From a virus (taxonomy: Duplodnaviria > Heunggongvirae > Uroviricota > Caudoviricetes), in IMG/VR virus record IMGVR_UViG_3300005095_000172, positions 1 to 64,000 of that record: a DNA stretch of 64,000 nucleotides; one strand, given 5' to 3'. Positions 11,902-64,000 of this stretch are shown in pieces. How positions within the stretch are numbered: position 1 is the stretch's first letter; each line of letters begins with the position of its first letter. The notes beneath the pieces are model-generated. The model was not told the origin of the DNA, did not search any database, and saw nothing but the letters and a program-made list of their open reading frames with translations. A program made the translations under genes and the position numbers.

Positions 11902-11905
11902 GTGT

Positions 11906-11940
11906 TTCCTTTCTTTTATTATAGTTTCATTAGCTTAAAA
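11906..11940 (-). promoter_or_regulatory. degenerate promoter element copy
   Basis: Partial consensus. Confidence 0.35.
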
Positions 11941-11945
11941 GCAAC

Positions 11946-18855: not shown

Positions 18856-18879
18856 TGTCTCTTCCCTTTCAGAGATGCC

Positions 18880-20319
18880 TTATCTTGACATCTCTCTTAC
18901 TGCTGTAAGTGTAGTAAGTTTCACTTCCCCATTTTCATAGATTGTTTCTAGGCAATCTTGAATTACTCTATCATCGACTTTCAAGTATCTATCATCAGTG
19001 AAATATTCATCAGTTTCTTTGTTGTACCAAAGTGTCAGTTCACCTTTTTTAGACTTTTTGTTCGGGGCGGTAATAGGGTCTTTGAACACATCTCTTTGTA
19101 CAAGGTATGGCTCCCAGACACTATTTCCTTCACCGTCTTCGATAGGACTTCCTTCATCTACGATAATACTTGAACATTTAAGAGCCCAACCTTGGGTGTC
19201 TCTATTATGAGATTGCATCAACCAACCACCAGAACCAAAGGCGATATTAGAAGAAGCGTAACCTCTTTCTTTAAGAACTTCAAGCATTTCTTTGATAGTT
19301 TCTTCATTAATACCATCACCCCAGATAATTCCGTACTTAGTAAACTCTTTATAACCTTTAGAATTAATTGTGAATTTAACTTCATTCTTTTCCATAATAT
19401 CAAGAGTTTTATTAATCACTTCTACTGGATTTCCTGAGTCTGGTCGAATAACAAACTTAGGGTACTCTTCACTTTCAATCTTTTCTTTGAACTCACCTGA
19501 TGTTACAGCATCAACCGTTTTAAAGTAATTGTAAGAATCACAAACTGCTGCTACAATAACTGAAGTTTTGTTGACTTCAATGTGGTTCATAATTATCTTG
19601 AGTTCATTTTCTTTAAGCCAAGATGTAGTCGTACTGTGCTCCGTAGCAGGGATTGAGTACCCAGCGTCTTCTTCATCATAGAATTCAAATGCGTATCTAA
19701 GAGAATTGAAGTTATCAGTTCCCATAAACTGTGTTAGATGAGCTACACCACCAATCCCTGCTGATTCCACTGAACTCGAACCTCTGTCTCCGAAGTTGTG
19801 GAACTGGAACTGTACGTCAAATACATCATCTGATGAAGTTTCCTTCCAGTACTTTTCAAGAAGTTCTCTGATATAGTAGCTTCTTGTGGCAATATTTGAT
19901 GTGTACCAAACCTTAAGGAAAAGAGTTTCAAGGAAACCTGCTACCCAAGGAACTTTCTCATCTGTTGATTCAATGCTGAATAGAATATTTCCAGTAGGAA
20001 TTACAGAACCTTCTTTAACAGCTCTGATTTTTACTGGAATATACCCGTTGTATTCATTTACAATATACTCCCAACCTTCTTTATTGAAAGGGATACCGTG
20101 CCCAGAAGCAAATTTTTCTGCTTGGTTTACATCATCCATTGTTACTGGATTCATAAGGTACTTCAAGATAAAGTACTGAATTCCAAAGAAAACCGTTTTT
20201 GGATATACTTTACCGCTTCTTGCTTCTGCGTACACAAACATTTGCTTCATATTTTCTGGGTATTGTTTCCAGTGACTGTATTTGTAAGAGTCACTCAACA
20301 TAATTACATTTTCTTTCAT
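18880..20319 (-). CDS. nadV: nicotinamide phosphoribosyltransferase (NadV/NAMPT)
   Basis: 479 aa; N-terminal 'SDSYKYSHWKQYP' and overall NAMPT-like sequence. Confidence 0.8.
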   Translation of the reverse strand: MKENVIMLSDSYKYSHWKQYPENMKQMFVYAEARSGKVYPKTVFFGIQYFILKYLMNPVTMDDVNQAEKFASGHGIPFNKEGWEYIVNEYNGYIPVKIRAVKEGSVIPTGNILFSIESTDEKVPWVAGFLETLFLKVWYTSNIATRSYYIRELLEKYWKETSSDDVFDVQFQFHNFGDRGSSSVESAGIGGVAHLTQFMGTDNFNSLRYAFEFYDEEDAGYSIPATEHSTTTSWLKENELKIIMNHIEVNKTSVIVAAVCDSYNYFKTVDAVTSGEFKEKIESEEYPKFVIRPDSGNPVEVINKTLDIMEKNEVKFTINSKGYKEFTKYGIIWGDGINEETIKEMLEVLKERGYASSNIAFGSGGWLMQSHNRDTQGWALKCSSIIVDEGSPIEDGEGNSVWEPYLVQRDVFKDPITAPNKKSKKGELTLWYNKETDEYFTDDRYLKVDDRVIQDCLETIYENGEVKLTTLTAVREMSR

Positions 20320-27542: not shown

Positions 27543-28410
27543 TCAACTTTCAAGATATTTACCCTCCACTATATTTTCAACTTCTTTAAAATCAGCTTTA
27601 TTAACAGTCACAACAGCGATTCTTGTTCTGGGTACCAATTCATTATATCTAAAAGTTTCTCCGTTCTTTTGGAACCGCCCTTCAGATTGAACAAGTACTT
27701 CTTCTCTCTTCACAAACCTACCGAATTTTTCTCCTGGAGTTGTTTCAGAGAACCAATCCTTACCAGTTTTATTTTTGCAATGTTCAATCTGTTCTTGAGA
27801 TGTTTTATTTTGCAGTTCTTTATGAGAACAATAAGTCTGGGCAAAAACATTTTTTGAATTCTTTTCGGGATCTCTTACTCTCCACAAAAATGAATTTACA
27901 ACTTCACTCTCATCCTCAACTCCATAAACTCTAGCATCAAAATAAGCTAAGTTGAGTTTGTGTCTAAACTTCTCCGTGAGTCCTTGAGCTTCAAGAACTT
28001 CTTTTAGTCCTTCATTGAACTTCACGGAACAGTACGCAGCAAAAAGTGAAGCAATCTTTTGAACCCTACCATTATAAATATGTTGGTAGTCCTTACGAAG
28101 TTCCTTCTCAAACCCAGTTTCCTCTTTCAACTCAACTTTCCTTAGCTGAGTAAGAGAAGGGATATAAAGTGTGATCTCGTCACTCTGAGTGTAACCAGTG
28201 TAAGCGTTGAATTCCTCCACTAACTTCACCGTACAATAATTCATAGCAGCAATAAGCACTCTATCAAAAGGCTTTCAAATCCCTTAGTGAATTTTGAAAT
28301 CCATGACCGTCTAACCTAACGATGATATGGTTATCTACAGGAACTCTTTTTTCGTATTGTGCTTCATATCCCTTTAATCTATCACCAAGAGCTGGGCTTG
28401 TATCTTTCAT
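27543..28410 (-). CDS. Thg1-like protein (tRNA-His guanylyltransferase / 3'-5' nucleotidyltransferase family), interrupted by a +1 frame change at UUU_UGA
   Basis: N-terminal 48-aa ORF (28264-28410) 'VPVDNHIIVRLDGHGF' matches Thg1 'VVRIDGKKFH'. The downstream ORF (27543-28259, GTG start) 'QSDEITLYI', 'AYFDARV', 'FLWRVRD' matches Thg1 'ESDEYSFIL', 'PSFDGRV', 'YLRWRQ'. Confidence 0.55.
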
Positions 28411-46069: not shown

Positions 46070-47170
46070 TTATCCCTCTTCGATATTCACTTCTAATTCT
46101 TTTATCGGGTATCCGTGTTCAAGATATTCATTCAGTCTTTCATAGCTATGTTTCAATACATAATTTTTATTCGTAACTCTTCCAGTTTTTGTTTTTGTAC
46201 TGAAATCATCAATGAAGTCAAAATACCTCATCATATCCTTTTCTTTATGAAGTCTCATTCCTCTTCCGATTGACTGATTAAGTCTAATACTAGATTTAGT
46301 ACTGGCGGCACTGAAGAAATTGTGTAACCTCTTAATGTTCAACCCAGTCGAAACTGTCTGGGCACTTCCAATGATAATCCCGTCTTCTACATTTTCCAAT
46401 AATGCTCTTACTTCATTTCTTGTTTCTCCCTCAATAGAACCTTTAATTAGGTATATATGAAAATCACTAAGAACTCTGATTTTTCTAATGTCATCATCTG
46501 AAAAATGTTTAGACAGATTTCGTTTATCTTTATCTGTCAGTTCCGTAAGAACAAAAAGTTCTTCTGTAGAATTTATTTTTTCTTTTGCTTCCAGTACTCT
46601 CTTAGGAGTAACCTTTTCAAGGATAATAGGTTCTGGGATATTGAATTTATTTGCGAGTATAAGTTTAAGTAATAAATCACCGTGAGATATAGAGTTATAC
46701 ATAACCATAGAGTTCCCGTATTTTTCTGTGGCTTGAATAACCATCTTAGCTATGAAATTATTCCTTGGGATATGTTCTTCTATAAATTTAGTTTCCTTTT
46801 GGTAATTTTTCAAAGCTTTTACTTTTTTCTTATCAGCATCAGAATAGTTCAAGTACACCGTGACAATAGTTACAGGAGTTGCTAACCCTCTTTCAATCAA
46901 TCCTTGAGGAGTAATGATTTTCTTGGATTTACCTAAAGTGGCTGAAAGCGTGAATCTCCCTTCGTAAGTCTTCGGCAAAGTTCCCGTTAGGCCAATCTTA
47001 TAAAGACAATTTCTGGATGCGTTCAGAAGCTTAGTGAGTGACTCTCCTGTTGCGAGATGACAATTAGATACATTTAGTCCATTAGCAAAATAATTATGAT
47101 TATCTTCAACATGGAGATTATAGGTATCACCTTCGTAATGACATGGTTCAATTGAAACTATTTTTGACAT
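46070..47170 (-). CDS. uvsW: UvsW helicase C-terminal fragment preceded by a 36-aa split-intein C-half (IntC)
   Basis: It starts 'MSKIVSIEPCHYEGDTYNLHVEDNHNYFANGLNVSN|CHLATGESL', with its own GGAGG RBS. The IntC block (47063-47170) parallels Npu DnaE IntC. The extein 'CHLATGESLTKLL..CLYKIGLTGTL' matches T4 UvsW 'ECHLATGKSISSII..CMFKFGLSGSL'. Confidence 0.8.
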   Translation of the reverse strand: MSKIVSIEPCHYEGDTYNLHVEDNHNYFANGLNVSNCHLATGESLTKLLNASRNCLYKIGLTGTLPKTYEGRFTLSATLGKSKKIITPQGLIERGLATPVTIVTVYLNYSDADKKKVKALKNYQKETKFIEEHIPRNNFIAKMVIQATEKYGNSMVMYNSISHGDLLLKLILANKFNIPEPIILEKVTPKRVLEAKEKINSTEELFVLTELTDKDKRNLSKHFSDDDIRKIRVLSDFHIYLIKGSIEGETRNEVRALLENVEDGIIIGSAQTVSTGLNIKRLHNFFSAASTKSSIRLNQSIGRGMRLHKEKDMMRYFDFIDDFSTKTKTGRVTNKNYVLKHSYERLNEYLEHGYPIKELEVNIEEG

Positions 47171-47314: not shown

Positions 47315-47773
47315 TTAAATTCTTCTACTAAAAGAATTAATCGTTCGTTCAATTTTTCTTCTTGTATCCCCATCAATTGACTCCTTCATATTGTAATATT
47401 TTTCTTCAATTTTCCAGATATTCTCATAGAACCAATCGTCATCTATGAAAACATATTCATATCCGTGCGTCTCACACCATTGTTTAGCGAATTTCTCCTT
47501 TACCTTTACTACTTCGTCGCTCATTTCAGATTTAGGTTTAATTTCATAGAGTATTTTTCCAATTTCATCTTCAAAATCTATTATATATGTATGTGAAACC
47601 CCATTATATGAGTACGGGATTCTTGTTTTTTCATACATAAGTGATGGGTTTATCATGAAAAATAAAGCTTCCCAGGAACTCCTGAGAGCAACACCATTCA
47701 CATAACATCGTGATTTAGAATATGAATTCGTGATACAAGGAGTCCACTCACCGTTAGCTATTTTTGTTTTCAT
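47315..47773 (-). CDS. putative PD-(D/E)xK nuclease (candidate homing endonuclease) between the split-intein halves
   Basis: 'HTYIIDFEDEIGKILYEIKP' D...E-x-K signature; sits inside the fractured uvsW locus. Confidence 0.4.
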   Translation of the reverse strand: MKTKIANGEWTPCITNSYSKSRCYVNGVALRSSWEALFFMINPSLMYEKTRIPYSYNGVSHTYIIDFEDEIGKILYEIKPKSEMSDEVVKVKEKFAKQWCETHGYEYVFIDDDWFYENIWKIEEKYYNMKESIDGDTRRKIERTINSFSRRI

Positions 47774-48446: not shown

Positions 48447-49430
48447 TCAACTTACACTTAAAATGTCATCCCCAACTAATAATTCATCAACTCTTACCCA
48501 ACCCCTTTTTGTGTTTACTTTATGGTTTCCAGTGATAATAAGTTCTTTCCCGTCCTCAGTCTTTAGCTTATACGTCTGTTCTTTTGGAAGATTCTTGTGT
48601 ACTTTTCTTACCTTTTTGTATTCATATTCACCAGAGTTTTCATTTATCGTCAATACTTCTTCACCAACTGAAATCTCACTTATTTTTTTCACCCCATCTT
48701 TTGTCAGTATTGGTGTGTTTGGATGTAAACATTCATCAACTATTACATAATCTAATTGGTCATAGTCGGACTCTTTCATAAGTATTCCCGACTGCCATGT
48801 AGTGACAACCATAGGCTTACTAAATGATTTTTCTTTCCCAGCAAATATCGTGTGAAGCTTTTTATCTGCATCTTCTTCACTCATCCCATAACTAAGGAAA
48901 TCTGAACGCATCTGTTCGGCTAATCCGACATTCGGAACTATCAGTAAACCTTTCTTTCCGTGTCTTTCGAAGAATGACATGATAAGAAAAACAATCAAAC
49001 TTTTTCCTGCCCCAGTAGCCGCTACGATTATTCTTCGTGGATGCTTGAGTACTTCCCTTAATGCGTCAACTTGATAATCATATGGTTCAAATGGGAGATT
49101 TAGTGATTTAATATGTTCTTGGATATCTGCTTCTGAGAAAAATTCTGGTTCAGTCTTAGGAGTGTAAGGTTCGTCTAAGTGGTCTTTATATCTAAGTGAA
49201 ATTGTTTCAGCTAACCCTTTTGGTATTTGCATAGATAAGTCAGATAACACCTTGAAATAGTATTTCTTACCGTCCCATATACCAGATCTGTATTTTGGTG
49301 AAAACTTATACCCATCCACAAAAACACTCAAGTCATCCATTAATTTAGTTCTTAGAACTAAAGCTTCTTCTTCTGAATGAGAATCGAAAGTTATAATAGA
49401 AAAACTTTCATCTTTATCAAAAATCTTCAT
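48447..49430 (-). CDS. uvsW: UvsW helicase N-terminal fragment followed by a 94-aa split-intein N-half (IntN)
   Basis: N-terminus 'DGYKFSPKYRSGIWDGK' matches T4 UvsW 'DGYRFNPRFRYGNWDGR'. Walker A 'ATGAGKS'. 'VIVDE|CLHPNTPILTKDG...ITGNHKVNT...' are intein blocks A/B. The ORF ends at a stop after IntN (48450-48731). Confidence 0.8.
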   Translation of the reverse strand: MKIFDKDESFSIITFDSHSEEEALVLRTKLMDDLSVFVDGYKFSPKYRSGIWDGKKYYFKVLSDLSMQIPKGLAETISLRYKDHLDEPYTPKTEPEFFSEADIQEHIKSLNLPFEPYDYQVDALREVLKHPRRIIVAATGAGKSLIVFLIMSFFERHGKKGLLIVPNVGLAEQMRSDFLSYGMSEEDADKKLHTIFAGKEKSFSKPMVVTTWQSGILMKESDYDQLDYVIVDECLHPNTPILTKDGVKKISEISVGEEVLTINENSGEYEYKKVRKVHKNLPKEQTYKLKTEDGKELIITGNHKVNTKRGWVRVDELLVGDDILSVS

Positions 49431-52805: not shown

Positions 52806-53861
52806 TCATAACCCAGCTTCTTTATCTAGCCTTTCCATGAACCATTTTCTTGCGATAGTTGAAATGTGTTTATTCACATCTTTTGGTTCAAGACCTCTTT
52901 CTACAAGGACGTCCATTTCTTCTTTCATAACATCGGAAACAACCGCCTTAAGGAACTCTCCTGTTCTCTTAACATCACCCTTTCCACCATTGAGAACATC
53001 GAATGTCTCATTGTACATTTGTTCTAGTCTCCAAGATGGAGTAGCGTAATTAGCAAAGTCAATTTTCTTTTGTTCAAGCTCACTATCCACTTTACTTAGT
53101 TTTTTCACTTTTGAATTAGAATGCTTATCCCCCTTACTCTTAAAGGAAAATCTATTTCCGTCGAACCAACCGACGAACACAATCCCTTCTCCGATACCTG
53201 AAACGCCAAATTTCTTAGCGACAGGACATTCATTTTCTACATATTCGGTGAGTTTCACAATTTCTTCTTGTGCTTTAGAAGGATTTTCAAAATCAATATC
53301 TACTTCGAATGTTTCAAAGTCAAAGATAGAAAAAATTCTAAGTTCAGGATTTTTTACTCTATTGAAAATTACTCTTGGATCCACAGCCCATCTATAATCT
53401 TCCTCATCTTTCATTTTGAATTTAATACCGAACATATAGAATGATTTGTCTAGTTCAGAAATACCGACCCCATTTTGAATTCCATTTCCAGCCCATTCTC
53501 CATAAATACATAATTCTTCAATTTCATCGCCTTTATACATATCATCAAAAACTTCATTCAGCATTGACTCAATGTAATCCCTAATACTTTCTACATAAAA
53601 GGCAAATCCTGCGTTGTCTTTGTCTACGGTGATTACATTTTTCTTAGACTGACACCACATTTCACGCTCTGAATTCATACAAATACTAGCGTTTGTTCCG
53701 TGGAGCTTCACTGTACCTACAAAAGTCACCGTAGGAAGGTCTTTAGAATGGTCATAAACAGCATTTCCGTCTTCATCCACACCTTTGTATCTCGCAACAT
53801 GAGATAGGTCTTTTACCACGTTTCTGAATTGAGCAATGCTCGGCATTTTGATTAGTTTCAT
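52806..53861 (-). CDS. RNA ligase, Rnl2-like (nucleotidyltransferase with KxHGxN motif I)
   Basis: 'VTFVGTVKLHGTNASI' versus T4 Rnl2 'WVAREKIHGTNFSL'. Confidence 0.6.
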   Translation of the reverse strand: MKLIKMPSIAQFRNVVKDLSHVARYKGVDEDGNAVYDHSKDLPTVTFVGTVKLHGTNASICMNSEREMWCQSKKNVITVDKDNAGFAFYVESIRDYIESMLNEVFDDMYKGDEIEELCIYGEWAGNGIQNGVGISELDKSFYMFGIKFKMKDEEDYRWAVDPRVIFNRVKNPELRIFSIFDFETFEVDIDFENPSKAQEEIVKLTEYVENECPVAKKFGVSGIGEGIVFVGWFDGNRFSFKSKGDKHSNSKVKKLSKVDSELEQKKIDFANYATPSWRLEQMYNETFDVLNGGKGDVKRTGEFLKAVVSDVMKEEMDVLVERGLEPKDVNKHISTIARKWFMERLDKEAGL

Positions 53862-54454: not shown

Positions 54455-54997
54455 TTAAACAAAAGTGTGTTCGATAAAAGTTCTTATTTTTTCCTTTCCA
54501 TCAAATTCGTTAGTGAATTCATAATCATATTTTCCATCTGAAATAGTTTCCCTTACCCAATTATCAAAATCGTTTTTAGGGTGTTTTGCTTCGCCTTTTA
54601 TAGCTACTATTTGAAATCCATTATCTACACACCAATCATATTCATTTTGTGTTCTGATATCTGAAATCACATAATTGTCGACATGAACTAGACTCATTTC
54701 GTCTGCTAACATTCTAACAAAAAGTTCATTTTCAACATCTCTAAGTTTATTCAGCGACAACCAAATTTCTCTTGGTGTCTTAGTTATCACTTCCCCAGTC
54801 TCTTCGATAAGAAGATTAAGTGGTTTCTCTTTTTCTTCTGGTGGATAGTCTGGTTTCAACCAAGGGTAAATTTTAGCACCGAGTTTTTTCAGTTGGTCTG
54901 AAAAACTGAATCTGACAAACCCATATTCATTCTTCAGAATATCTACTATATAGTCCTTCCCTGAGCCACTGACTCCCATGAATGCAATCTTTACCAT
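54455..54997 (-). CDS. deoxynucleoside monophosphate kinase (T4 gp1-like)
   Basis: 'IAFMGVSGSGKDYIV' versus T4 gp1 'IFLSGVKRSGKDTTA'; similar size. Confidence 0.55.
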   Translation of the reverse strand: MVKIAFMGVSGSGKDYIVDILKNEYGFVRFSFSDQLKKLGAKIYPWLKPDYPPEEKEKPLNLLIEETGEVITKTPREIWLSLNKLRDVENELFVRMLADEMSLVHVDNYVISDIRTQNEYDWCVDNGFQIVAIKGEAKHPKNDFDNWVRETISDGKYDYEFTNEFDGKEKIRTFIEHTFV

Positions 54998-55001
54998 TTA
55001 A

Positions 55002-55262
55002 TCACTCCATGATCTGTTTATAGTGAAATCTAAAATAATCGATATTTATGAACCATAAATCTGCGTTTTCTTTTTCGATATTATCTAAATCTCCAGCCAC
55101 AACACCGACGATTTCATCGTCCTTGAATTTCTTTAAGTATTCCTTATCATGGTTCCCCATAGAAATAGAAGGGTATTTTTTCTTCATTTCTTCTATTTCT
55201 TTCTTATTCACAGTGATTACTTCGCTTTCAGTAGGTTTCTTGATCACTTTAATTCTTTCCAT
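55002..55262 (-). CDS. hypothetical protein
   Basis: ORF track. Confidence 0.35.
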   Translation of the reverse strand: MERIKVIKKPTESEVITVNKKEIEEMKKKYPSISMGNHDKEYLKKFKDDEIVGVVAGDLDNIEKENADLWFINIDYFRFHYKQIME

Positions 55263-55283
55263 AATTATACATTCTCCTTAATT

Positions 55284-55493
55284 TTAACAATGATTTACAT
55301 CTAATGGATCGTTACCTTCCGGTATTTTCACTATAAATCTTTTATTATTGATTTCTCCGTCAGACCAAACTCCGTCAAACAATCTTACCTTATCGACCCT
55401 TAGAATAGACAAATATTCAGTTGGGTCGAATTCTACTCGGATATACTCATTTCCGTTTTTAGCAAATGTGTGTTCGTGAAATACATTACTCAT
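55284..55493 (-). CDS. hypothetical protein
   Basis: ORF track. Confidence 0.35.
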   Translation of the reverse strand: MSNVFHEHTFAKNGNEYIRVEFDPTEYLSILRVDKVRLFDGVWSDGEINNKRFIVKIPEGNDPLDVNHC

Positions 55494-56056
55494 GTGGTTC
55501 TACTTTCCACGATTTCTATAATTTTACTAACAGCGTCTTCACTCATTTCCACCGAATAATAATCAATACCGTATTCTTCTAGAGTTTGTTTAATTTCTTT
55601 GTCTTTCTGTATAGCTTCTTCTAAAGTTTGATTTCTTCCATATTCTTGATACCCATGTTCTTCAAGATTTCTTTCTAAGAAAATATTAATGGTGTGATAA
55701 GATTTCCACATAGAAACTAATAAATTCTTGAATTCTTCTTTTGGTAAGTGCGGGTTGTCTTGTAAATAAACTAAACCAAGGAAAAACGGTCCATCATTTA
55801 CTGTATAATCAACTTGTCCTTCGAGTTTAAACCAAGGATGTGATTGTTTTGCTAAAATCATAACTTGGTCTTTGATTTTAAAATGGTCTTTACTATATGT
55901 TAAATCCTTTGCGTATTCTGGCACATATTCAATGCTATATCCTTCTTTTTTCATTTGATGGAAGACCCCAGTAGAGATAGTGCTTTTTCCCGTTCCTGGT
56001 CCTCCAAACAAGCATATATTCAATAACTTTCTATCTGTTTGCTTCACAATTTTCAC
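55490..56056 (-). CDS. P-loop kinase (AAA_28 / NadR ribosylnicotinamide-kinase-like)
   Basis: Walker A 'LFGGPGTGKSTIS'; small kinase-sized; fits the NAD salvage theme. Confidence 0.4.
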   Translation of the reverse strand: MKIVKQTDRKLLNICLFGGPGTGKSTISTGVFHQMKKEGYSIEYVPEYAKDLTYSKDHFKIKDQVMILAKQSHPWFKLEGQVDYTVNDGPFFLGLVYLQDNPHLPKEEFKNLLVSMWKSYHTINIFLERNLEEHGYQEYGRNQTLEEAIQKDKEIKQTLEEYGIDYYSVEMSEDAVSKIIEIVESRTT

Positions 56057-56237
56057 CTAATTTTATAATTTTTCCTGTTCCAGAGCATCTACTACATATA
56101 TCAGACTCTGGCTCCCCGAATGCTCCGTGCCCGTGTATCACACCAGAACCATTGCAATATTCACAAACATTTACAACAATTATTCCACGTTTTATAAGTT
56201 TAGAAAGTTTCACTTTCTTTTGATTATCTTTACTCAT
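56031..56237 (-). CDS. zinc-ribbon protein
   Basis: 'CEYCNGSG...CSRCSGTG'. Confidence 0.35.
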   Translation of the reverse strand: MSKDNQKKVKLSKLIKRGIIVVNVCEYCNGSGVIHGHGAFGEPESDICSRCSGTGKIIKLGENCEANR

Positions 56238-57042
56238 AATACCAGCCTTCTTCCTTTAGAAGTTCTTTCGCTTCTTCTGTGCTTAGTTCGATTGCTTCTC
56301 CTTTAACATAAGGAGTGTCGATTTTAATGGTGGTTTCACCAGCAAAGCCGTCTTTCTTGAAATATAAAGGTTCAACTTCAAAAGACCTAAGACCAATCAT
56401 AGTTCTTTTATTTGGGACTGATTCAGGCACACCATGAAGACATTTAGTGTTGTCGAAAATTAATACATCACCGACACCTAAATTCAATTCCTTTTCTTCA
56501 CCATTACTGTCAATTATCTTAAGACCACCACCGTCGTTTTCATTTTCTAAGACGATTACCATTACTAATCTAGGAATTAACCCTTCTTCCAACTTAATAT
56601 ATTCTTTATCCCATTCACCTTTGAATATTTCTGCGTCGAAGTGGTAAGGCAGAGAATTGTCATACCCAGATTTATATTTCTGGTAATTCACCAGTACTTT
56701 TGTATCTAGTGGAATTTTATTGTATTCACCATAAAGAAAATTACTAAGAACACCAAAATATAAATACATGAGTTCTTCTACTCCTTGGATTTCAGAAGAC
56801 ATAAGAAACGGGGCAGTGTCAGGGGTTTCTAATGAGACCAATACAGCGTCTCCTCTTCTACCTTTTGTATCTTCTCTTTTTCTAAATAATTTTCTTTCTA
56901 CAAAATCTTCAGAGTATTCATTTTCAATAGAAGGAATTGTCTCTTCTAATAGAATCTTTATTCCAGGTTCTCCAACTCCATTTCTTTCTATATGGAACCC
57001 GCTTTCTTTCAAATTGTTTATTATTTCATTAACATAGCCCAT
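56230..57042 (-). CDS. possible 2OG-Fe(II) oxygenase-fold protein
   Basis: 'LPYHFDAE' (HxD) ... 'KCLHGVP' ... 'GLRSF'; weak. Confidence 0.3.
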   Translation of the reverse strand: MGYVNEIINNLKESGFHIERNGVGEPGIKILLEETIPSIENEYSEDFVERKLFRKREDTKGRRGDAVLVSLETPDTAPFLMSSEIQGVEELMYLYFGVLSNFLYGEYNKIPLDTKVLVNYQKYKSGYDNSLPYHFDAEIFKGEWDKEYIKLEEGLIPRLVMVIVLENENDGGGLKIIDSNGEEKELNLGVGDVLIFDNTKCLHGVPESVPNKRTMIGLRSFEVEPLYFKKDGFAGETTIKIDTPYVKGEAIELSTEEAKELLKEEGWYYE

Positions 57043-57096
57043 TAAATCTTCTCCACTTGGTAGTTCTTAATTACTGAAGGAAATTTCAAGTAGAAA

Positions 57097-57312
57097 CTAC
57101 TCTTTATTTTCCAATAATATAGCTTTCATTTCATCAGGAAGAAGTTCTTCTGGACCTTCTTCAGTGAACTTTAGAAAGATTTCATTTTCTAAAAACTTAG
57201 TTTTCCCATACAAGTTGTTTTCTAGGACTGTAGTATTAATGGGAAACTCTGGTTCCCCACATTCCATACTCACATACACTTCCCCATCAATAGTAATTTC
57301 ATAAATTTCCAT
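57097..57312 (-). CDS. hypothetical protein
   Basis: ORF track. Confidence 0.35.
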   Translation of the reverse strand: MEIYEITIDGEVYVSMECGEPEFPINTTVLENNLYGKTKFLENEIFLKFTEEGPEELLPDEMKAILLENKE

Positions 57313-59384
57313 TACTCAACCTCGATATTGAATTTTCTGAAACTAGATTGCTCAATAGAATAGATGAATTCATCAGAACCACTGATTGGTATAGTTAGGT
57401 TAAAATCAACTTCTGATAATTTACTTTTCTTTTGGCAAATATAAGCTAACACCAAAGAAGCATACTCATATAATAGGTTAGAACCGACAGGAACATGGTA
57501 TTTCTTAAAAATATTATTCACACCTTTGATGTTTTTACCGTAAGAAGGAATTCCTTCTGATATGATCAGTTCACTGTAAAAATCGACAAGTTCTTTAAAG
57601 AAATCGTGTGTATCATCCAAATCAGGGAAGACAATTTCATCATCAGCATTTAATCCAATTTTTTGATGGAGTTTATTTTCAAGAACTTGATACCCTTGAG
57701 CACCATTGAAATCATACAAGTGGAGGTTAGTAACGTGGTGGTTGTAAGAACCAAGAGACACTTCTGGGTCAATCTCGTCTTGGATAGATTGTAGAATCAT
57801 TTCTTGTAGGAATGTCCATTCAAAAATATTTATACTCCCCCAACCCCAAATTACATCACCTGACCGAGACTTAACATTCATATGTAGTCTTTTATCAGGA
57901 GTGACAAAAAAGTCCATGGCCATGTTGCAATTATGAACAATCCAACCACCAGATTTAAGAATAAAATTATGATTATCTTCAACGGTAATATCGAAAACGC
58001 CAACAGATTCTTCCACATATTCTACGCCTATGACCTTAATGAACCCCATTGAAGTGTCTGAATTTTCTTTAATTCTTCTTTCAAATACTTTATGGTCACC
58101 GATTCTATTTTTTAATTGGTGTTTGAAATTCTTCCAAGAACCAAATTTATCAACTATCCTTGTTAAAGAAGGAAATCCCATGGTACCAAGATTTTTATTT
58201 GCGTAATCATAAGAAAGAGTTTCCAATTCTTCTATTCTCTTTTCGAAGATGTCTAAAATTTCTTCTTTCGAAAGTCCTTTAAACATTAGCCCGTGAGAAT
58301 ATCCAGGATTTTGTCTATTGGCTTCGACTTTCTTTTCAATAACCTTCTTATTTCTGCTTGGATTATTTAGTAATTTATGAATTCTATTGTGTTCACTTTC
58401 TGTCAACAGCTCTAAATTTTCCTTAGAATTATCAAAATGATCTCCATTTTTATGATGAACAGTCATCCCTTCTGGAATTTCTCCATAAAAGTATTCAAAT
58501 GAATCTCTATGCCAAGAGGTCAAATTCGAGAATCTCTTATTTTCTCTTAAATTCTTTTTAATCAAACCACCGTTCTCATGAATTGGAGTCGAAAGTATAT
58601 AGTCACCTATTTCGATTTCAGATGCTTTTTTCTGTATTACGGTGTATGGTTGTCTGCTCCTTCCAACAAAAGAATATTCTTTCATATACATAGAATGATC
58701 TTCAGTAACACAAACCTCATCTCCGTTACTTAATGTGATCTTTAAGTATCTACTCACGTCTTTTGTTTTACCAGACCACTCAACTCTTTTTAGTTCCACG
58801 CATTCTGAACTTTCGTTATAAGAGTAAACCAAATCTTCAGTTGTTACTTCAGATATTCTTTTATACCCTGAGTTCGTGAGAATTTCTGTATGAGAAAGGA
58901 AACAAGGTTTGTCCAATGTTTTATCAAGCCCATACACATTCTCCAAACTTTCTTTAGTATCCAAGTTAGGGTCACCAATGTAAAGAGTAGCTCTTCTTGT
59001 ATAAATTCCTTCGTTTCTAAATTGTTCAATCACGTCATCTAATTGATTACCGTTCTTAATTCTTTCAGGATAACCTCCACGCCAATTTTTTCCGTCATCT
59101 GAAAAGTCTTTTGCTCTTGGTAAGAAAAACGATAGATAAGGGTCTATTCCATTGGACCCAGCGAATACCCAAAAAGTTTCTGCGATAGAAGCAAAAATAT
59201 TATTCTTTCTTCCATTCAGTGAAAGGTGTCTAGCCTTTGGATTTTCGATAGTAGAGAAGAAGTTATAGATAGTGTTGATGTCTCCATTCCTTGATTTTGT
59301 TCTATAACCATTGTAGATTAATTCTTCTAACGCTTTCAAGACAGCGTCGTTTATTGTCTTTCCTTCTATAAAGGTAGGCTTCAT
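57312..59384 (-). CDS. thymidylate synthase-family enzyme (ThyA or dNMP hydroxymethylase) carrying an HNH intein at the catalytic Cys
   Basis: Exteins 'IFASIAETFWVFAGSNG' and 'LDKP|C..NMAMDFFV..RSGDVIWGWGSINIFEWTFL' align to the TS 'ELLWF..G', 'PCHxxxQFYV', 'RSxDxxLGxPFN' regions. The intervening 325 aa have intein blocks. Confidence 0.8.
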   Translation of the reverse strand: MKPTFIEGKTINDAVLKALEELIYNGYRTKSRNGDINTIYNFFSTIENPKARHLSLNGRKNNIFASIAETFWVFAGSNGIDPYLSFFLPRAKDFSDDGKNWRGGYPERIKNGNQLDDVIEQFRNEGIYTRRATLYIGDPNLDTKESLENVYGLDKTLDKPCFLSHTEILTNSGYKRISEVTTEDLVYSYNESSECVELKRVEWSGKTKDVSRYLKITLSNGDEVCVTEDHSMYMKEYSFVGRSRQPYTVIQKKASEIEIGDYILSTPIHENGGLIKKNLRENKRFSNLTSWHRDSFEYFYGEIPEGMTVHHKNGDHFDNSKENLELLTESEHNRIHKLLNNPSRNKKVIEKKVEANRQNPGYSHGLMFKGLSKEEILDIFEKRIEELETLSYDYANKNLGTMGFPSLTRIVDKFGSWKNFKHQLKNRIGDHKVFERRIKENSDTSMGFIKVIGVEYVEESVGVFDITVEDNHNFILKSGGWIVHNCNMAMDFFVTPDKRLHMNVKSRSGDVIWGWGSINIFEWTFLQEMILQSIQDEIDPEVSLGSYNHHVTNLHLYDFNGAQGYQVLENKLHQKIGLNADDEIVFPDLDDTHDFFKELVDFYSELIISEGIPSYGKNIKGVNNIFKKYHVPVGSNLLYEYASLVLAYICQKKSKLSEVDFNLTIPISGSDEFIYSIEQSSFRKFNIEVE
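57930..58904 (-). mobile_element. intein (325 aa) with an HNH homing-endonuclease domain, inserted at the TS-family active-site Cys
   Basis: Begins 'CFLSHTEILT', block B 'TEDHSMY', HNH 'HHKNGDHFDN...EHNRIH', ends 'VEDNHNFILKSGGWIVHN' + C. Confidence 0.8.
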
Positions 59385-59448
59385 TCAATTTTCTCCTGTT
59401 TTCATTTATAAAGTTATTTTATTGTATAAAAGTTTTCTTAATTGGAAC

Positions 59449-60549
59449 TTATTTCCAACCCATTTCTTTTGCAAGTTTATATCTTCTTGAAGTGAATGAT
59501 TTAAACTTCAAAATCTCACTTTCATCCACACCATGTTTTCTTAGTTCTGATTTCATTTCTTCATAGACAACTTTCGGTGATCTGAAGAAGTTTTCCTTTG
59601 TTAAGAATTCTCCAACTTTACTTTTGATAAATTTTCTTCTTCTCGTTTCTTCTATGCTGAACTTTTTTCTCTTTTTAGGAAGTACTGAAGTAAAATTCAA
59701 CTTTTCTTGTAGTTCTTCAAATGAATACTTAGGAATTAAGTTTATCATTTTAAAGAATTTCAAGTAATTTGTCTCAGACCTGATTGCCCAAGGTCTCACA
59801 GATTGTTTATAGTCATTGATTGAGTGAGATTGATTAGAATATTCTGAATGAATTATGTTGTGCGCAACTGGGTTAATCATAATCATCCCAAAGAATTCAG
59901 TAAGCTCTTCAACGCATTCTTGTGAAGATAAATCAATATTCCTCAGTAAATCACTAGGGTTCTTTTCTCCCTTAATCACGCTATGTCCATATTGGCTCAC
60001 TTCCATATGATGGAGGTCAAATGTGAATGAATTTTTTGTTGGGGATTTTGTTAAGAACGGGTCAATGTTAGTGAAGAATGGAATACCGCTAATTGGACAT
60101 CGTTGTTCCATGATATTCTTCTTACCAAAATACATACAGGAAAGGACTTCCATATTTTTCAGTCTTCTTTCGTCCCTTGAATTTAATGAAATTTCAGTAC
60201 CGTCATTCAAGACAACTTTATATTTGTCTTTAGAAATTCTCACATACTCTTTGAAGTCTTTTAAAGTGTATTTCGTCTTGAAATACTTATTGTATTTTAA
60301 AATAATTCTCTGAGCATCTTTTCCGACAGCGTTGATATTTGTGGTTCTATTTTCTTTAGAGAAGAGTTTTTGCAAGTCAGTTTCTTTATTCAAAAACTTC
60401 AAAACTGACTTTCTGTTATAAGTATGTAGTGGGTCGTATTTTCCTAATACAATATCCACACTTTCAGTAAGAGTATGTCCTTGGATAAGTTTTTCTTCAA
60501 TTTCTTTTACGATTTTTTCGTCAATAAATTCTGGAATAGAAATCTTCAT
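59449..60549 (-). CDS. putative free-standing HNH-type endonuclease
   Basis: 'FDLHHME...N...NPVAHNIIH' HNH-like His/Asn spacing; large N-terminal region of unknown function. Confidence 0.35.
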   Translation of the reverse strand: MKISIPEFIDEKIVKEIEEKLIQGHTLTESVDIVLGKYDPLHTYNRKSVLKFLNKETDLQKLFSKENRTTNINAVGKDAQRIILKYNKYFKTKYTLKDFKEYVRISKDKYKVVLNDGTEISLNSRDERRLKNMEVLSCMYFGKKNIMEQRCPISGIPFFTNIDPFLTKSPTKNSFTFDLHHMEVSQYGHSVIKGEKNPSDLLRNIDLSSQECVEELTEFFGMIMINPVAHNIIHSEYSNQSHSINDYKQSVRPWAIRSETNYLKFFKMINLIPKYSFEELQEKLNFTSVLPKKRKKFSIEETRRRKFIKSKVGEFLTKENFFRSPKVVYEEMKSELRKHGVDESEILKFKSFTSRRYKLAKEMGWK

Positions 60550-60602
60550 TTATTTCCTTTTTACAAATTGAAGAATTATACTATAATTGACTTAATCTTT
60601 AC

Positions 60603-61538
60603 TTAAAAATTCTCTCCGAGGTCTTCTTCTATAATCACACATTCTTTAAGCATCTTATCTATATTACTTCTTATTTCAGACTTCTTAAGTTTACCGAAAT
60701 GCGTCTTTTTATGTATAGTACCTAGCTTATGATCATATAAAGTGTATTCGTGTTTAGGGAAGGTCACTTCACCTAATTCTTCCAACACTTCATCAGGAGT
60801 CTTCTTAGAGTTCAGTGCTGCGTCCATGATAGCTTCACTCCATCTTAACGCAGATTCCATCTCATTGATTTCTAGTGTGCTAAAGAAATGTCTGAATTCT
60901 ACTGTACCGACATATTTTAATTGAAATAGGTTAATTCCAGTCCTATTGACAAAATGCCAATTATACCCACCATCTTTATTTTTACTTACATATGATTGGA
61001 AATATTCTTCCATAGTTCGTGCTTTCATCATTTTATCAAAGATAGCTTCTGAAATAGGGTGACCATTTTGTTTCTTTCTGAATTTATCGTATTTCTTCGC
61101 TGCTTCGTATGCTGCTCTAGAATATTTTTTCCTAGATGGTTCAACGAATTCTCTAGTAATTTCTAGGATTCTTTCTTGATGTTCAAAGAAATACTTTGTG
61201 ATATCCTTCACCGTTTCCAAATCTTCAGATAATCCAGGTACTCCTACATGAACATGGAAGTCGCAAGTATGGTTAATATTTTTCCTTGGTAGTAGCTCAA
61301 GAATTTCTTTGATATTCTTTACTTGTTCCTCTATTGTATCTGTTGGCGTTACATTAACCTCTCCGCCAAGAGAAACCATTTTCTTAGTATTGTCCACCCC
61401 AAGCCCAGAAGAATTAACTAAAGTGTTCTCTTCCCTATTCCATTGCCCTAGATGACCAAGTTCTATTCTTTGGTCAGTATCGACTAATTCCAGTTCACTA
61501 CCAAATGTGAAGATTTCTTTCGGGTATTTTACAGCCAT
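60603..61538 (-). CDS. putative amidoligase (glutamine-synthetase / GCS2-like carboxylate-amine ligase fold)
   Basis: N-terminal 'FTFGSELELVD' metal-binding ExE strand motif typical of the GS/GCS2 'phage amidoligase' family. Confidence 0.4.
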   Translation of the reverse strand: MAVKYPKEIFTFGSELELVDTDQRIELGHLGQWNREENTLVNSSGLGVDNTKKMVSLGGEVNVTPTDTIEEQVKNIKEILELLPRKNINHTCDFHVHVGVPGLSEDLETVKDITKYFFEHQERILEITREFVEPSRKKYSRAAYEAAKKYDKFRKKQNGHPISEAIFDKMMKARTMEEYFQSYVSKNKDGGYNWHFVNRTGINLFQLKYVGTVEFRHFFSTLEINEMESALRWSEAIMDAALNSKKTPDEVLEELGEVTFPKHEYTLYDHKLGTIHKKTHFGKLKKSEIRSNIDKMLKECVIIEEDLGENF

Positions 61539-62206
61539 TCATCCATCCCAGAATTATTTTCTTCTTCGTTATGAACATAGTCATAGTCAAAATAACTTTT
61601 CACCAGAACTTCTTTAGGGGCTTGCCAATCAATTTGAACTACTCTATCGTTTTCTTTGACTTGTTCCTTAAATGCTTCTCCGCATTTTCTGATAACTTCA
61701 TTATCTTTCCACCCAGGAGAATTTTCAGCCCAATCCAATCCTCTATTCTTTCCGGTTCTTCCGTTGGTTCTTTCAATAAAGTCTTGAATATCGTTATAGT
61801 ATGTATATAGATTGTGTACCTCAGTAGCACCATACTCTCTTAATTTTTCTGGGCCACCTTGAATACTTCTATTGTTGAAATACCCTTCCATGAAAACAGT
61901 TTCTACATCATCATTTTCTGAAAGTTCTTTAATGAAGTTTAGTCTATGTTCCCATTTACTTAGGTATGCTGTATCTAGCGAAACCCATCCATCACGATCT
62001 TTAGTGAACTTACCAAATACAAGCCACCCGTTACTAAACAATAATCCAACTTGTTCGACTTTAGGTTCTTTACCCTTTCTTTCTATTTCATAATAAAATG
62101 GTTCATAGCTAAATTCACTCATCAGATAATCAACTAATACCTTTGTTCTAGTAGATTTTCCAACTCCATTAGAACCCATATAATTAATAACTCTCAATTT
62201 TCCCAT
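61529..62206 (-). CDS. P-loop kinase/NTPase (candidate nucleotide or DNA-base kinase)
   Basis: Walker A 'YMGSNGVGKSTRT'. Confidence 0.45.
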   Translation of the reverse strand: MGKLRVINYMGSNGVGKSTRTKVLVDYLMSEFSYEPFYYEIERKGKEPKVEQVGLLFSNGWLVFGKFTKDRDGWVSLDTAYLSKWEHRLNFIKELSENDDVETVFMEGYFNNRSIQGGPEKLREYGATEVHNLYTYYNDIQDFIERTNGRTGKNRGLDWAENSPGWKDNEVIRKCGEAFKEQVKENDRVVQIDWQAPKEVLVKSYFDYDYVHNEEENNSGMDEWL

Positions 62207-62218
62207 TAGAATCTCCTT

Positions 62219-63211
62219 TTAAACCCATTCTTCAATCGAAGAAGTGTTTAGAATTTTTATTTTATCTTCAAATGGAAATTTAAATTTTTCCTTCTGAATT
62301 CCATCATTATTTACGAACCTTTTATCTAAAAGTTCTTCACGTGCTTCCCAAAGTATAGACCAATCTACTCCGTCGAATCCATTATTTTCTATAGATTTGA
62401 TATCTTCAGCCTGTCTATCTAAGTAATACCCAATATATCTACTATCTCTTTCCCTGAACAACTTTTTATACGCACAAGAAACAGTTTCTATCAAAAATGG
62501 GTCTACTTCCACGCCATCATTAATAAGTTCTTCCTGAAGTCTTTTTGTGTTAGCTTCAAGCCATTCTTTGTCTTCTTTAGAGAATTTATAGACTTTCTTT
62601 TTTCTTTTCCCATCTTCAATATAACGCTCTTTAGTAGCCCATTCGTCTTTTCCGAATGCTTTACATAACCCATGAGTATGACTTTCAGCGTTAGATTCTC
62701 CAAGAAATAAACGGTCTGGCTCTATTTTATAACCAGCTACTTGTTTCAGCATTTGTACCCAATTCCATACACTAAATCTACCAAAGTGGTCTATAGACTT
62801 ATACAATTCTTCCCAAATTGTATTGAAATTACTACTCGCTTCTCCTTTCAATAAATCGTCAAAGAAATCCTTTTGGCTATCACCAACAAGCTTCTTATAA
62901 GAAATGATCGTATCTGGGAGATATTTTCTTTGTTTAAGTTTATCTCGTTGAAACGGACAAAGCTTTTGAACATCTTTCCACCAATTTCTTAGTTTTGTCT
63001 CTCCAACGAGTTCTAAATCTGGGTATTCATTAAAAAGGAGGTATGCTGTAGGAAGATGATAAGTAATGCTATTCAAGAAACAAAACCAAAGAATTTGATC
63101 TTCATTCATTTCCAATCTATCAACAAGATAGTTACTCATCCAAATATTTGGATCTATGTCTTTTACCCTAAGTGAATTTTTATAGAATTCTTTAAAGCTT
63201 TCTTCTCTCAT
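62219..63211 (-). CDS. hypothetical protein (member of the modification-like cluster)
   Basis: ORF track; translationally coupled to the GATase gene. Confidence 0.45.
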   Translation of the reverse strand: MREESFKEFYKNSLRVKDIDPNIWMSNYLVDRLEMNEDQILWFCFLNSITYHLPTAYLLFNEYPDLELVGETKLRNWWKDVQKLCPFQRDKLKQRKYLPDTIISYKKLVGDSQKDFFDDLLKGEASSNFNTIWEELYKSIDHFGRFSVWNWVQMLKQVAGYKIEPDRLFLGESNAESHTHGLCKAFGKDEWATKERYIEDGKRKKKVYKFSKEDKEWLEANTKRLQEELINDGVEVDPFLIETVSCAYKKLFRERDSRYIGYYLDRQAEDIKSIENNGFDGVDWSILWEAREELLDKRFVNNDGIQKEKFKFPFEDKIKILNTSSIEEWV

Positions 63212-63843
63212 CCCATATCCCTATGGATTTTTTCATCTGAATTAGGAAGTACCTTTTCTATACTTTCATCTTTAAACCCAGCTCTTTTTAAGATATTTCT
63301 AGTACTAGCGATAATGTAGCCGTTTTCTAGCGTACCTTTCCATTGTGGTCTAAGACCATTTCTAGAGTTAGATATATTCCCATCTTTATCAAGTGAAACA
63401 ACAGAAACACTACACCCTTTATAGTCTTCATTGTAGTTTCTATTGTTTTTCAAGCAGTTCCAAAGGATTTCTGTATCGTTTCTTGTTTTATAGGAGTATC
63501 TCTTATCCCAATTTTCAGGTCCTTCTTGAGAAATGACTCCATTATGAACTATACAAAATTCATTATCGCCTATTGGTTGATTGAATTTTAAATCAGATGT
63601 ACTATATCTAATGTGTCCTATTAAAGAAAGTTCATCATTTACGATACATTGTTCAAAAGAAAAGTCTTTTAAGAATTCTGAAATGGTGATTGGTTTCGAG
63701 ACTATGCTTATATCTTTCCCATTAAACCAAGCTACGCCAGATGCGTGTTTTCCTCTAATTTCAGTTTCGAGGAAAACTCTTTTAAGGAGTTCAATATCAC
63801 TATTTTTTGGGGAGCTGATTTTAGCTCCTACTACACCGCACAT
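63208..63843 (-). CDS. class II (Ntn) glutamine amidotransferase domain protein
   Basis: N-terminal 'MCGVVG' catalytic-Cys start, as in GlmS/PurF/AsnB GATase domains. Confidence 0.65.
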   Translation of the reverse strand: MCGVVGAKISSPKNSDIELLKRVFLETEIRGKHASGVAWFNGKDISIVSKPITISEFLKDFSFEQCIVNDELSLIGHIRYSTSDLKFNQPIGDNEFCIVHNGVISQEGPENWDKRYSYKTRNDTEILWNCLKNNRNYNEDYKGCSVSVVSLDKDGNISNSRNGLRPQWKGTLENGYIIASTRNILKRAGFKDESIEKVLPNSDEKIHRDMG

Positions 63844-64000
63844 CTATTTTCCGCTTAAATCTGTAATTTCTTTTTCGATATTGTTATTTTCATCCATAAT
63901 CAGAACAGCAGGAACTAATTCATCTGCTTCCATTGGGGTCATTGAACCATATGCGATAACAATAATCTTGTCTCCTGGTTCAACCAACCTTGCCGCAGCA
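63844..64000 (-). CDS. PanD-like pyruvoyl-dependent aspartate alpha-decarboxylase, C-terminal part (truncated by the window edge)
   Basis: '[39 protein letters not shown]' versus E. coli PanD '[39 protein letters not shown]'. Confidence 0.6.

Follow-up and report, generated by a model that had tools for sequence, protein, structure and literature searches.

A block of co-oriented genes occupies one end of a 64,000-nt stretch of viral DNA (positions 1 to 64,000 of IMG/VR record IMGVR_UViG_3300005095_000172; hereafter, the window), and we analyzed this block as a candidate cluster for hypermodification of phage DNA bases. The window has a GC content of ≈32%, carries nearly all of its sizeable open reading frames (ORFs) on the minus strand, and is part of a large uncultured phage of ≈140 kb; T4-type replication, RNA repair, and NAD salvage genes lie elsewhere in it, and a protein 100% identical to the AADT described below is encoded on a 140,623-bp JGI contig in the protein database. 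Between positions 64000 and 54455, every gene is on the minus strand. Read from its 5' start, the block contains the end of a PanD-like gene, a glutamine amidotransferase (GATase) gene, an AADT gene, an HMUD2 kinase gene, an Amidoligase_2 gene, a gene for a 366-aa protein, and a thymidylate synthase (TS)-family gene, followed by a 71-aa ORF, a 2-oxoglutarate (2OG) oxygenase-like gene, a 68-aa zinc-finger-like ORF, an AAA_28 kinase gene, two small ORFs, and a deoxynucleoside monophosphate (dNMP) kinase gene (Table 1). The stop codon of the PanD-like gene touches the ATG of the GATase gene (TAGATG) with zero intergenic spacing, the GATase and AADT genes overlap by 4 nt, the HMUD2 gene starts 12 nt downstream of the AADT gene, and the HMUD2 and amidoligase genes overlap by 10 nt, so that the first five genes, from PanD to amidoligase, form a tightly packed, gapless series. 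No terminator-like sites were found on the minus strand inside the block, and the gene order from GATase to dNMP kinase is syntenic with that of another IMG/VR contig (L001). The abutting and overlapping genes, the lack of internal terminator-like sites, and the synteny imply that the genes are not clustered by chance. The co-oriented cluster described in the original prediction, which was made from the sequence alone, was thus recovered with all of its genes in place on the minus strand. A megablast search of the region against cultured phages returned no match.

Table 1. Features of the gene block and the profile matches that define them
Feature	Position	Strand	Evidence
PanD-like gene, 3' end	63844..64000	-	Pfam Asp_decarbox E=6.2e-10; last 51 residues and TAG stop
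GATase, PurF/GlmS-like, 211 aa	63208..63843	-	GATase_6 E=2.3e-7
AADT, 330 aa	62219..63211	-	Pfam ADDT E=3.7e-12
5-hmdU DNA kinase 2 (HMUD2), 225 aa	61529..62206	-	Pfam HMUD2 E=2.8e-9
Amidoligase_2 enzyme, 311 aa	60603..61538	-	Pfam Amidoligase_2 E=9.1e-10
Protein without family, 366 aa	59449..60549	-	One homolog, 385 aa, same position in L001
TS-family gene, 690 aa including intein	57312..59384	-	phrog_3676 E=1.3e-72
Intein, 325 aa, HNH_3 domain	57930..58904	-	Intein_splicing E=6.3e-15; HNH_3 E=5.1e-13
2OG-Fe(II) oxygenase-like, 270 aa	56230..57042	-	2OG-FeII_Oxy_3 E=8.5e-4 (below cut-off)
Zinc-finger-like ORF, 68 aa	56031..56237	-	DnaJ-type CXXCXGXG repeat E=4e-6 (below cut-off)
AAA_28 P-loop kinase, 188 aa	55490..56056	-	AAA_28 E=1.6e-10; phrog_2107 'thymidylate kinase' E=2.1e-20
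T4 gp1-type dNMP kinase, 180 aa	54455..54997	-	phrog_139 E=1.6e-30

The 330-aa protein, originally listed as an unknown to be compared with the aGPT-Pplase families, is predicted from its sequence and modeled structure to be an AADT (formerly aGPT-Pplase clade 2, PF18724) belonging to a divergent, GATase-linked clade. This assignment follows from a Pfam score above threshold, a fold match to gp46 of phage PaMx11, an invariant E-T-x-x-C motif, and the agreement in position between this motif and that of gp46. The protein scored 46.9 bits against Pfam ADDT (cut-off 26.2), with a weaker match to aGPT-Pplase3 (29.1 bits). In a Foldseek search of the PDB with its AlphaFold2 (AF2) model (pLDDT 94.3), the top three matches were PaMx11 gp46 structures (8z2n, 8z2m; probability 1.00, TM 0.53-0.63), and the next matches were AGOG glycosylases. 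The model has the fold of the family, being all-helical and related to helix-hairpin-helix glycosylases, as is the gp46 crystal structure. Residues E242 and C246 are invariant in 41 homologs, and the ETVSC motif that they delimit corresponds to ETILC (E243, C247) of gp46, with profile positions that agree to within one residue. Because neither a profile search against PDB sequences nor an hhalign comparison with gp46 gave anything significant, the link to gp46 required fold comparison together with the active-site motif. PaMx11 gp46 is a glycinyltransferase that acts on 5-phosphomethyl-deoxyuridine (5-PmdU) (PMC8989533), and its motif Cys is the proposed nucleophile at C6 (PMC11472151); the motif Glu and Cys are both essential in M6 gp51 and ViI gp247 (PMC8989533).

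The adjacent gene, originally described as a P-loop kinase to be checked against 5-HMUDK, was assigned by its profile match as a 5-hydroxymethyl-deoxyuridine (5-hmdU) DNA kinase 2 (HMUD2, PF18747; 37.0 bits, cut-off 25), with the Walker A sequence GSNGVGKST in its translation. ViI gp243 and SP10 gp218 are of this same 'kinase 2' type, and HMUD2 homologs adjoin AADT in related loci. Experiments have defined an AADT plus a 5-hmdU DNA kinase as the core of thymidine hypermodification after replication. In these pathways, synthesis of 5-hmdUMP precedes replication and 5-hmdU is polymerized into DNA; phosphorylation by the DNA kinase follows, and the AADT then exchanges the phosphate for a nucleophile (PMC5889632, PMC8989533). 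In the window, the AADT gene shares its block with the 5-hmdU DNA kinase gene and with the gene of the probable TS-family hydroxymethylase, which would supply 5-hmdU.

The TS-family ORF reaches 690 aa because a 325-aa intein interrupts the gene. The intein begins at Cys1 of a CFLSH sequence, contains a TEDH (TxxH) block, and ends in VHN directly before the TS catalytic Cys (motif PCN), which is the +1 residue. Once the intein is removed, the remaining 365-aa TS sequence and the intein-free homolog in L001 are 71% identical over a gap-free alignment. The homologs in L003 and L008 are also intein-free, and the same gene of L087 contains an intein. From its sequence, the spliced protein is probably a dUMP hydroxymethylase that gives 5-hmdUMP. 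Its best match in the PDB was the CMP 5-hydroxymethylase MilA (2.5e-12) compared to 9e-5 for true ThyA, and a plain ThyA was rejected on this basis. The Asn in its GSINIF sequence, which aligns with the Asp of cytosine-specific MilA, is the uracil-specifying residue. Of the proposed 'dUMP/dCMP hydroxymethylase', the dUMP part was retained and a dCMP hydroxymethylase was rejected. The cultured phages with the best-matching relatives are ViI-like, M6-like, and SPO1-like, all of which make 5-hmdU. We know of no residue that diagnoses hydroxymethylation versus methylation in the TS family. Together, the HMUD2 and ADDT matches, the gp46 fold, the E-T-x-x-C motif, and a TS homolog on the hydroxymethylase side with a uracil-type Asn bear out the idea of thymidine hypermodification based on 5-hmdU, and we conclude that the block is very probably a phage thymidine hypermodification cluster.

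The scores of HMUD2, ADDT, Amidoligase_2, GATase_6, and Asp_decarbox all exceeded their own Pfam cut-offs. The GATase, whose proposed nature as an Ntn glutamine amidotransferase was confirmed by the GATase_6 match and invariant class II residues, starts with MCGVVG, which places the nucleophile Cys right after the initiator Met; 48 of 49 GATase homologs from the loci likewise begin with M-C-[GSA]. Invariant in 50 homologs are C2, R30, G31, R79-Y80, H100-N101-G102, and D123-x-E125, which align with PurF Arg26, Arg73, Asn101-Gly102, and Asp127, so that all class II catalytic and glutamine-binding positions are kept. A GATase profile search of the PDB ranked PurF first (5e-9), followed by GlmS, and did not return the γ-glutamyl amidohydrolase EgtC among matches at E<=0.01, whereas single-sequence PDB searches with the GATase and with the amidoligase were empty or gave noise. 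The AF2 model of the GATase (pLDDT 92.8) matched the glutaminase domains of GlmS and PurF at probability 1.00 and 20-22% identity. All of the ≈400 GATase homologs are stand-alone domains of 205-245 aa, which implies that a partner enzyme is needed. Among the matches listed, a GATase homolog was present in 42 of the 42 AADT-clade loci with at least 3 kb upstream of AADT; it lay within 4.5 kb on the same strand in 39 of these loci and abutted AADT in 10. The GATase is thus an obligate partner of one AADT clade. Since it accompanies this clade also in loci that lack an amidoligase (GATase-GNAT-AADT), its partner is not the amidoligase.

The gene proposed to encode a GS/GCS2-like amidoligase indeed matches Amidoligase_2 (PF12224; 39.2 bits, cut-off 22), a family of carboxylate-amine ligases of the glutamine-synthetase/GCS2 type. 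In 26 homologs, the motifs GxExE, GGE, HxH, and TxEFR are conserved, and residues E15, E17, E60, H95, H97, R199, E214, and R216 are invariant or nearly so. The homolog in L001 is part of a 700-aa GNAT::amidoligase::HMUD2 fusion, and that in L008 is fused to HMUD2; these fusions to a DNA kinase imply that the amidoligase acts on DNA. In L086, L087, L089, and L091, the amidoligase gene directly follows the AADT gene. The best amidoligase match in the phage collection is in 'Phage Simon' (62% GC), which combines the amidoligase with HMUDK_hel and a TS homolog and has no detectable AADT or GATase of the window type. Two tandem amidoligase paralogs follow AADT without a GNAT in L091 (9068-10979), which suggests that this phage extends the side chain step by step in a peptide-like manner; L091 also carries TRAP-transporter genes (DctM, NMT1_3).

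Relatives of the window AADT (36-67% identity) were found in at least 82 loci from IMG/VR and JGI metagenomes, and exact-protein look-ups added five more. Distant relatives show two architectures, Tet_JBP - GATase - GNAT - AADT - Ploopntkinase3 and Tet_JBP - GATase - amidoligase - GNAT - large protein (presumed to be ParB-like) - AADT - Ploopntkinase3, which agree with the ParB-dependent T-dioxygenase clusters described in PMC13229309. The closest relatives among the matches listed (58-73% AADT identity, 28-30% GC) carry a TS-type hydroxymethylase, HMUD2, NT5C, dUTPase_2, and HMUDK_hel, and have the order GATase - AADT - amidoligase - GNAT with 2OG-like and AAA_28 genes nearby. Contigs of this group are AT-rich (28-33% GC) and derive from environmental metagenomes. 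The gene upstream of GATase in these close relatives is NT5C, HMUD2, AAA_28, or DnaB. Homologs of the cluster-type GNAT, NT5C, dUTPase_2, and HMUDK_hel were not found in window bases 1-64000. Some loci contain additional genes. In marine L002 (4851-8276; also in L007, L011, and L016), the GATase/GNAT genes are separated from AADT by genes for an SbmA/BacA-like transporter and a MotA/ExbB-like protein. In the close relative L086 (14684-16573), CTP_transf_like, TAGT (PF20691), and T4 endonuclease IV-like genes lie between the kinase and TS homologs, which hints at further or alternative DNA modification and discrimination against host DNA in that phage.

The gene at the window edge matches PF02261 (39.4 bits, cut-off 25) over profile positions 74-114 of 115, and its fragment aligns with bacterial PanD across the 'NGAAA...GD' region, as expected for the truncated PanD-like decarboxylase gene that was predicted there. 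Searches for its relatives gave little: the 51-aa fragment had no word-sharing homologs in a large protein database, and tblastn against 'phage' records hit very short contigs of Listeria and Enterococcus. The two PanD-bearing contigs in IMG/VR (L083 and L084) carry no hypermodification genes. In L083, which holds the nearest IMG/VR PanD (51% identical), the gene belongs to a cellular panB-panC-panD operon. In L084 (8549-10177), PanD comes directly after an ATP-grasp ligase amid LicD and nucleotidyltransferase/aminotransferase genes, in an apparent surface-glycan cluster where a source of β-alanine is coupled to a ligase; by analogy, this unrelated contig may serve as a precedent for pairing of PanD with a ligase. 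No panB or panC homolog lies downstream of the window PanD. Whether the PanD-like gene belongs to the pathway is uncertain.

We consider that the block may direct post-replicative thymidine hypermodification of the phage's own DNA by the following steps, a reading to which we assign a probability of ≈0.5. The TS homolog, with its intein spliced out, would hydroxymethylate dUMP, as in the characterized family; the dNMP kinase, presumably converting 5-hmdUMP to the diphosphate, would together with host enzymes bring it to the triphosphate; and 5-hmdU would be polymerized into DNA in place of T. HMUD2 would then phosphorylate the 5-hydroxymethyl group in DNA to give 5-PmdU, whereupon Cys246 of the AADT would attack C6, the phosphate would be expelled, and a nucleophile would add to the exocyclic methylene. 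The steps to 5-PmdU and the Cys-mediated exocyclic methylene rest on characterized homologs, and the steps that follow are inferred. The nucleophile would be ammonia released from glutamine by the translationally coupled PurF-like GATase, giving 5-aminomethyl-deoxyuridine (5-aminomethyl-dU). We take ammonia to be the nucleophile of the AADT because a glutaminase that has no synthase domain of its own must work with another enzyme, and the AADT is the sole universal partner. In PurF, glutamine-derived ammonia displaces pyrophosphate, and MnmE/MnmG uses ammonium or glycine in an analogous tRNA reaction. This chemistry, together with the GATase-GNAT-AADT architecture, supports the ammonia step, which by analogy is about evenly balanced between being right and wrong. 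Under the same model, GATase-GNAT-AADT loci would produce 5-acetylaminomethyl-dU, which PaMx11 reaches by a longer route through glycine and a flavin lyase (PMC8989533).

The amidoligase would next attach a small carboxylate to the amine on the DNA at the expense of ATP. The obvious candidate is β-alanine, which the PanD-like enzyme would produce from aspartate, because the PanD-like gene lies immediately upstream, and the product would be 5-(β-alanylaminomethyl)-dU, which ends in a primary amine. Most known thymidine hypermodifications bear a terminal primary amine. We nonetheless regard β-alanine as a tentative choice of carboxylate, with the odds clearly against it. Still more doubtful is the full generalization, in which phages have a second, glutamine-dependent route to 5-aminomethyl-dU through a stand-alone glutaminase and a dedicated AADT clade, amidoligases build amides upon it, and a viral PanD supplies β-alanine. 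The base expected from that complete reading, 5-(β-alanylaminomethyl)-2'-deoxyuridine (C13H20N4O6, [M+H]+ 329.146), is equally doubtful.

Several observations weigh against the proposed steps. No cultured phage in the phage collection carries the cluster, and the relatives in cultured phages are only ≈24% identical for the AADT and ≈26% for the GATase. The GATase model also matches EgtC (probability 1.00, TM ≈0.6, 11-13% identity), and inspection of 169 AADT and 396 GATase homologs revealed no GATase-AADT fusion. Close relatives pair the amidoligase with a GNAT, no homolog of which was detected in the window, so that the pathway may differ or may lie in part beyond base 64000. Only the last 51 residues of the PanD-like protein are visible, with its start and Gly-Ser pyruvoyl-forming site beyond base 64000; PanD occurs in none of the ≈87 related loci among the matches listed; and where phage genes are packed this tightly, adjacency says little about joint function. 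The strongest competing explanation builds on these last points: the cluster would work as it does in its relatives, and PanD would either help to supply β-alanine, pantothenate, or CoA as an auxiliary metabolic gene or be a recent unrelated insertion. We consider this a serious prospect whose chances fall somewhat short of even. It agrees with the presence of other genes upstream of GATase in close relatives, with the cellular operon around the nearest IMG/VR PanD, and with other metabolic genes in the window, such as NAMPT and an NMNAT-like gene. By contrast, the zero spacing to the GATase gene and the absence of downstream panB/panC homologs argue for a link to the cluster, and a supply of β-alanine would suit an amidoligase that needs a carboxylate.

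Other explanations keep PanD in the pathway or assign the GATase and amidoligase different reactions. MurT/GatD is a known amidation design of a GATase with a ligase. In an amino-acid route that elaborates on the original prediction, the AADT would load 5-PmdU with a free amino acid such as Asp or Glu, the appended carboxylate would be amidated by the amidoligase and GATase as a MurT/GatD-like pair, and PanD would decarboxylate the appended Asp on DNA. PanD enzymes, however, act on free L-aspartate, PanD is missing from the related loci as noted above, and this route leaves GATase-AADT pairs without an amidoligase unexplained. In its favor, all characterized AADTs take amino acids or diamines (PMC8989533, PMC13458397), those of M6, ViI, and PaMx11 use Gly or Ser, and decarboxylases of DNA-borne amino acids exist in the form of the M6 and ViI pyridoxal phosphate (PLP) enzymes (PMC8989533). 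On balance, we consider it unlikely. The match of the GATase model to EgtC raises a further, improbable scheme, in which a γ-glutamyl conjugate built by the amidoligase would be transferred to DNA, with the Ntn domain removing the γ-glutamyl group afterwards. EgtA/EgtC provides a precedent, and Amidoligase_2 is of the GCS2/glutamine-synthetase type, yet the GATase is closer in identity to PurF/GlmS than to EgtC, EgtC was missed by the profile search, and many loci have the GATase without the amidoligase. We give very little credence to a role outside DNA, in which the TS would be an ordinary thymidylate synthase and the amidoligase-GATase pair would serve in protein tagging or in the synthesis of a small metabolite, as proposed for pairs in LUZ24-like phages. 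The nearest cultured-phage GATase homologs do occur in LUZ24-like and tf-like podoviruses, where no AADT homolog was detected, but these are the ≈26%-identical relatives mentioned above, the genes of the window are interleaved with HMUD2 and AADT, and the TS is hydroxymethylase-like. The amidoligase-kinase fusions and the 42 of 42 association of GATase with AADT among the matches listed likewise disfavor the metabolite- or peptide-tagging alternative that had originally been left standing.

The remaining genes of the block lie downstream of the amidoligase. The 366-aa protein, described earlier as a putative HNH nuclease, has no Pfam or PHROG match even at E<=5 and shares with its L001 homolog only D[LF]HHM...AH..H, a loosely HNH-like His pattern; assignment as an HNH nuclease was rejected because no HNH family profile matched. 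The 2OG-like protein scored 20.7 against a Pfam cut-off of 27. Despite this low score, the suggestion of a possible 2OG oxygenase gained support from an HxD...H...R pattern (iron triad and 2OG-binding Arg) conserved in seven homologs. Its homologs in L001, L086, L089, and L091 make it a conserved neighbor of the TS homolog and the AAA_28 kinase. The 68-aa zinc-finger-like ORF between the 2OG-like and AAA_28 genes is conserved in L001. The AAA_28 kinase is retained across related loci; its role is ambiguous between NAD and nucleotide metabolism because the family includes ribosylnicotinamide kinase. The gp1-like dNMP kinase was confirmed by its PHROG match (Table 1) and has homologs in L001 (6e-90), L008, L086, and L091.

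Other elements stand apart from the block. Two adjacent ORFs at 46070-47170 and 48447-49430 (both minus strand) match DNA helicase families and have two small ORFs between them (47315-47773, minus strand, lies in this interval), one of which has a TnsA-like endonuclease domain (E=3e-6); the pair looks like a single helicase gene split by insertion of a mobile endonuclease. A serine resolvase (9033-9623, minus strand) adjoins a TnpB/OrfB_IS605 protein with a Cas12f-like TNB domain (7828-8991, minus strand), and together (7828-9623) they form an IS607-type element within the genome of the phage; GC content peaks in the nearby bin 10001-12000 (0.387, the highest in the window). A nicotinamide phosphoribosyltransferase gene (E=1.7e-133) beside a cytidylyl/NMN adenylyltransferase-like gene forms a NAD salvage pair (18115-20319, minus strand). 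An RNA repair set on the minus strand (503-1720, 5751-6866, 27543-28259, and 52806-53861) comprises polynucleotide-kinase-like, RNA ligase 1-like, RNA ligase 2-like, and Thg1-like tRNA-His guanylyltransferase members.

Thymidine hypermodifications shield phage DNA from restriction enzymes, and they are a source of enzymes for DNA chemistry. To our knowledge, the few solved pathways use Gly, Ser, putrescine, or diaminopropane as donors and PLP, radical SAM, flavin, or GNAT enzymes for tailoring. The association of GATase with AADT and the fusion of amidoligase to kinase give a concrete chemical scheme. If true, it would extend the known reactions on DNA bases by two, ammonia transfer and ATP-dependent amide ligation, and would account for a large group of phage clusters from marine and freshwater environments. 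Amidoligase and glutaminotransferase genes were reported to co-occur with 5-HMUDK and aGPT-Pplase2 in metaviromes, with no function given (Lee et al. 2021, PMC8989533), and a 2026 paper on T-dioxygenases lists GATases within the T-hypermodification machinery (PMC13229309). Our literature search found no paper that assigns a reaction or product to these GATases or amidoligases. Therefore, the claim that this combination matches no described pathway stands for the reaction and product, but not for the gene association, since a GATase and amidoligase beside 5-HMUDK and AADT had already been noted. In sum, the core is known, the accessory set is recognized yet uncharacterized in the literature, and the PanD-like gene is new with respect to every relative examined.

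Among characterized systems, PaMx11 provides a direct comparison: its gp49 5-HMUDK, gp46 glycine:DNA transferase (PUGT), gp47 flavin lyase, and gp48 GNAT yield 5-acetylaminomethyl-dU (PMC8989533). Like PaMx11, the window has a probable dUMP hydroxymethylase, a DNA kinase, and an AADT with the gp46 fold and E-T-x-x-C motif; moreover, the PaMx11 pathway passes through 5-aminomethyl-dU, and many relatives of the window cluster carry a gp48-like GNAT. Unlike PaMx11, the window AADT is only 12-13% identical to gp46 and is accompanied by a PurF-like GATase and an amidoligase instead of an FAD lyase and a GNAT, so that the amine, which comes from cleaved glycine in PaMx11, would come from glutamine here. 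ViI and M6, which make 5-(2-aminoethoxy)methyl-dU (5-NeOmdU) and 5-(2-aminoethyl)-dU (5-NedU), respectively, follow the same logic of kinase, transferase, and tailoring enzymes. ViI-like phages hold the nearest cultured-phage homologs of the AADT (≈24% identity) and TS (≈40%), and ViI gp243 is of the HMUD2 type. Tailoring depends on PLP decarboxylases and a radical SAM isomerase in ViI and M6; in the window, it would fall to the GATase and amidoligase and perhaps to the pyruvoyl-type PanD. The metavirome clusters with the order Tet_JBP/ParB - GATase - AADT - P-loop kinase (PMC13229309, PMC8989533) share the GATase and AADT families (36-42% AADT identity) and often the amidoligase and GNAT families of the window's close relatives. 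In those clusters, 5-hmdU arises after replication through a dioxygenase and is paired with Ploopntkinase3, whereas the window and its close relatives encode HMUD2 and a probable dUMP hydroxymethylase, which would act before replication.

The proposed ammonia step also has parallels outside DNA modification. By profile, PurF is the solved structure nearest to the GATase. It shares the Cys1, Arg, Asn-Gly, and Asp of the GATase, and its pyrophosphate leaving group is analogous to the phosphate that would be lost in the proposed step. In contrast, the glutaminase of PurF is fused to a synthase domain that uses a sugar phosphate, whereas the window glutaminase stands alone and its proposed acceptor is a DNA base held in an unrelated helical enzyme. 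In MnmE/MnmG, the enzymes are unrelated, the substrate is RNA, and the carbon is derived from folate. Nonetheless, its addition of ammonium or glycine at the C5 methylene of tRNA U34, giving 5-aminomethyluridine (nm5U) or 5-carboxymethylaminomethyluridine (cmnm5U), would parallel an ammonia-using and a glycine-using AADT, the glycine half of which parallel was drawn previously (PMC8989533).

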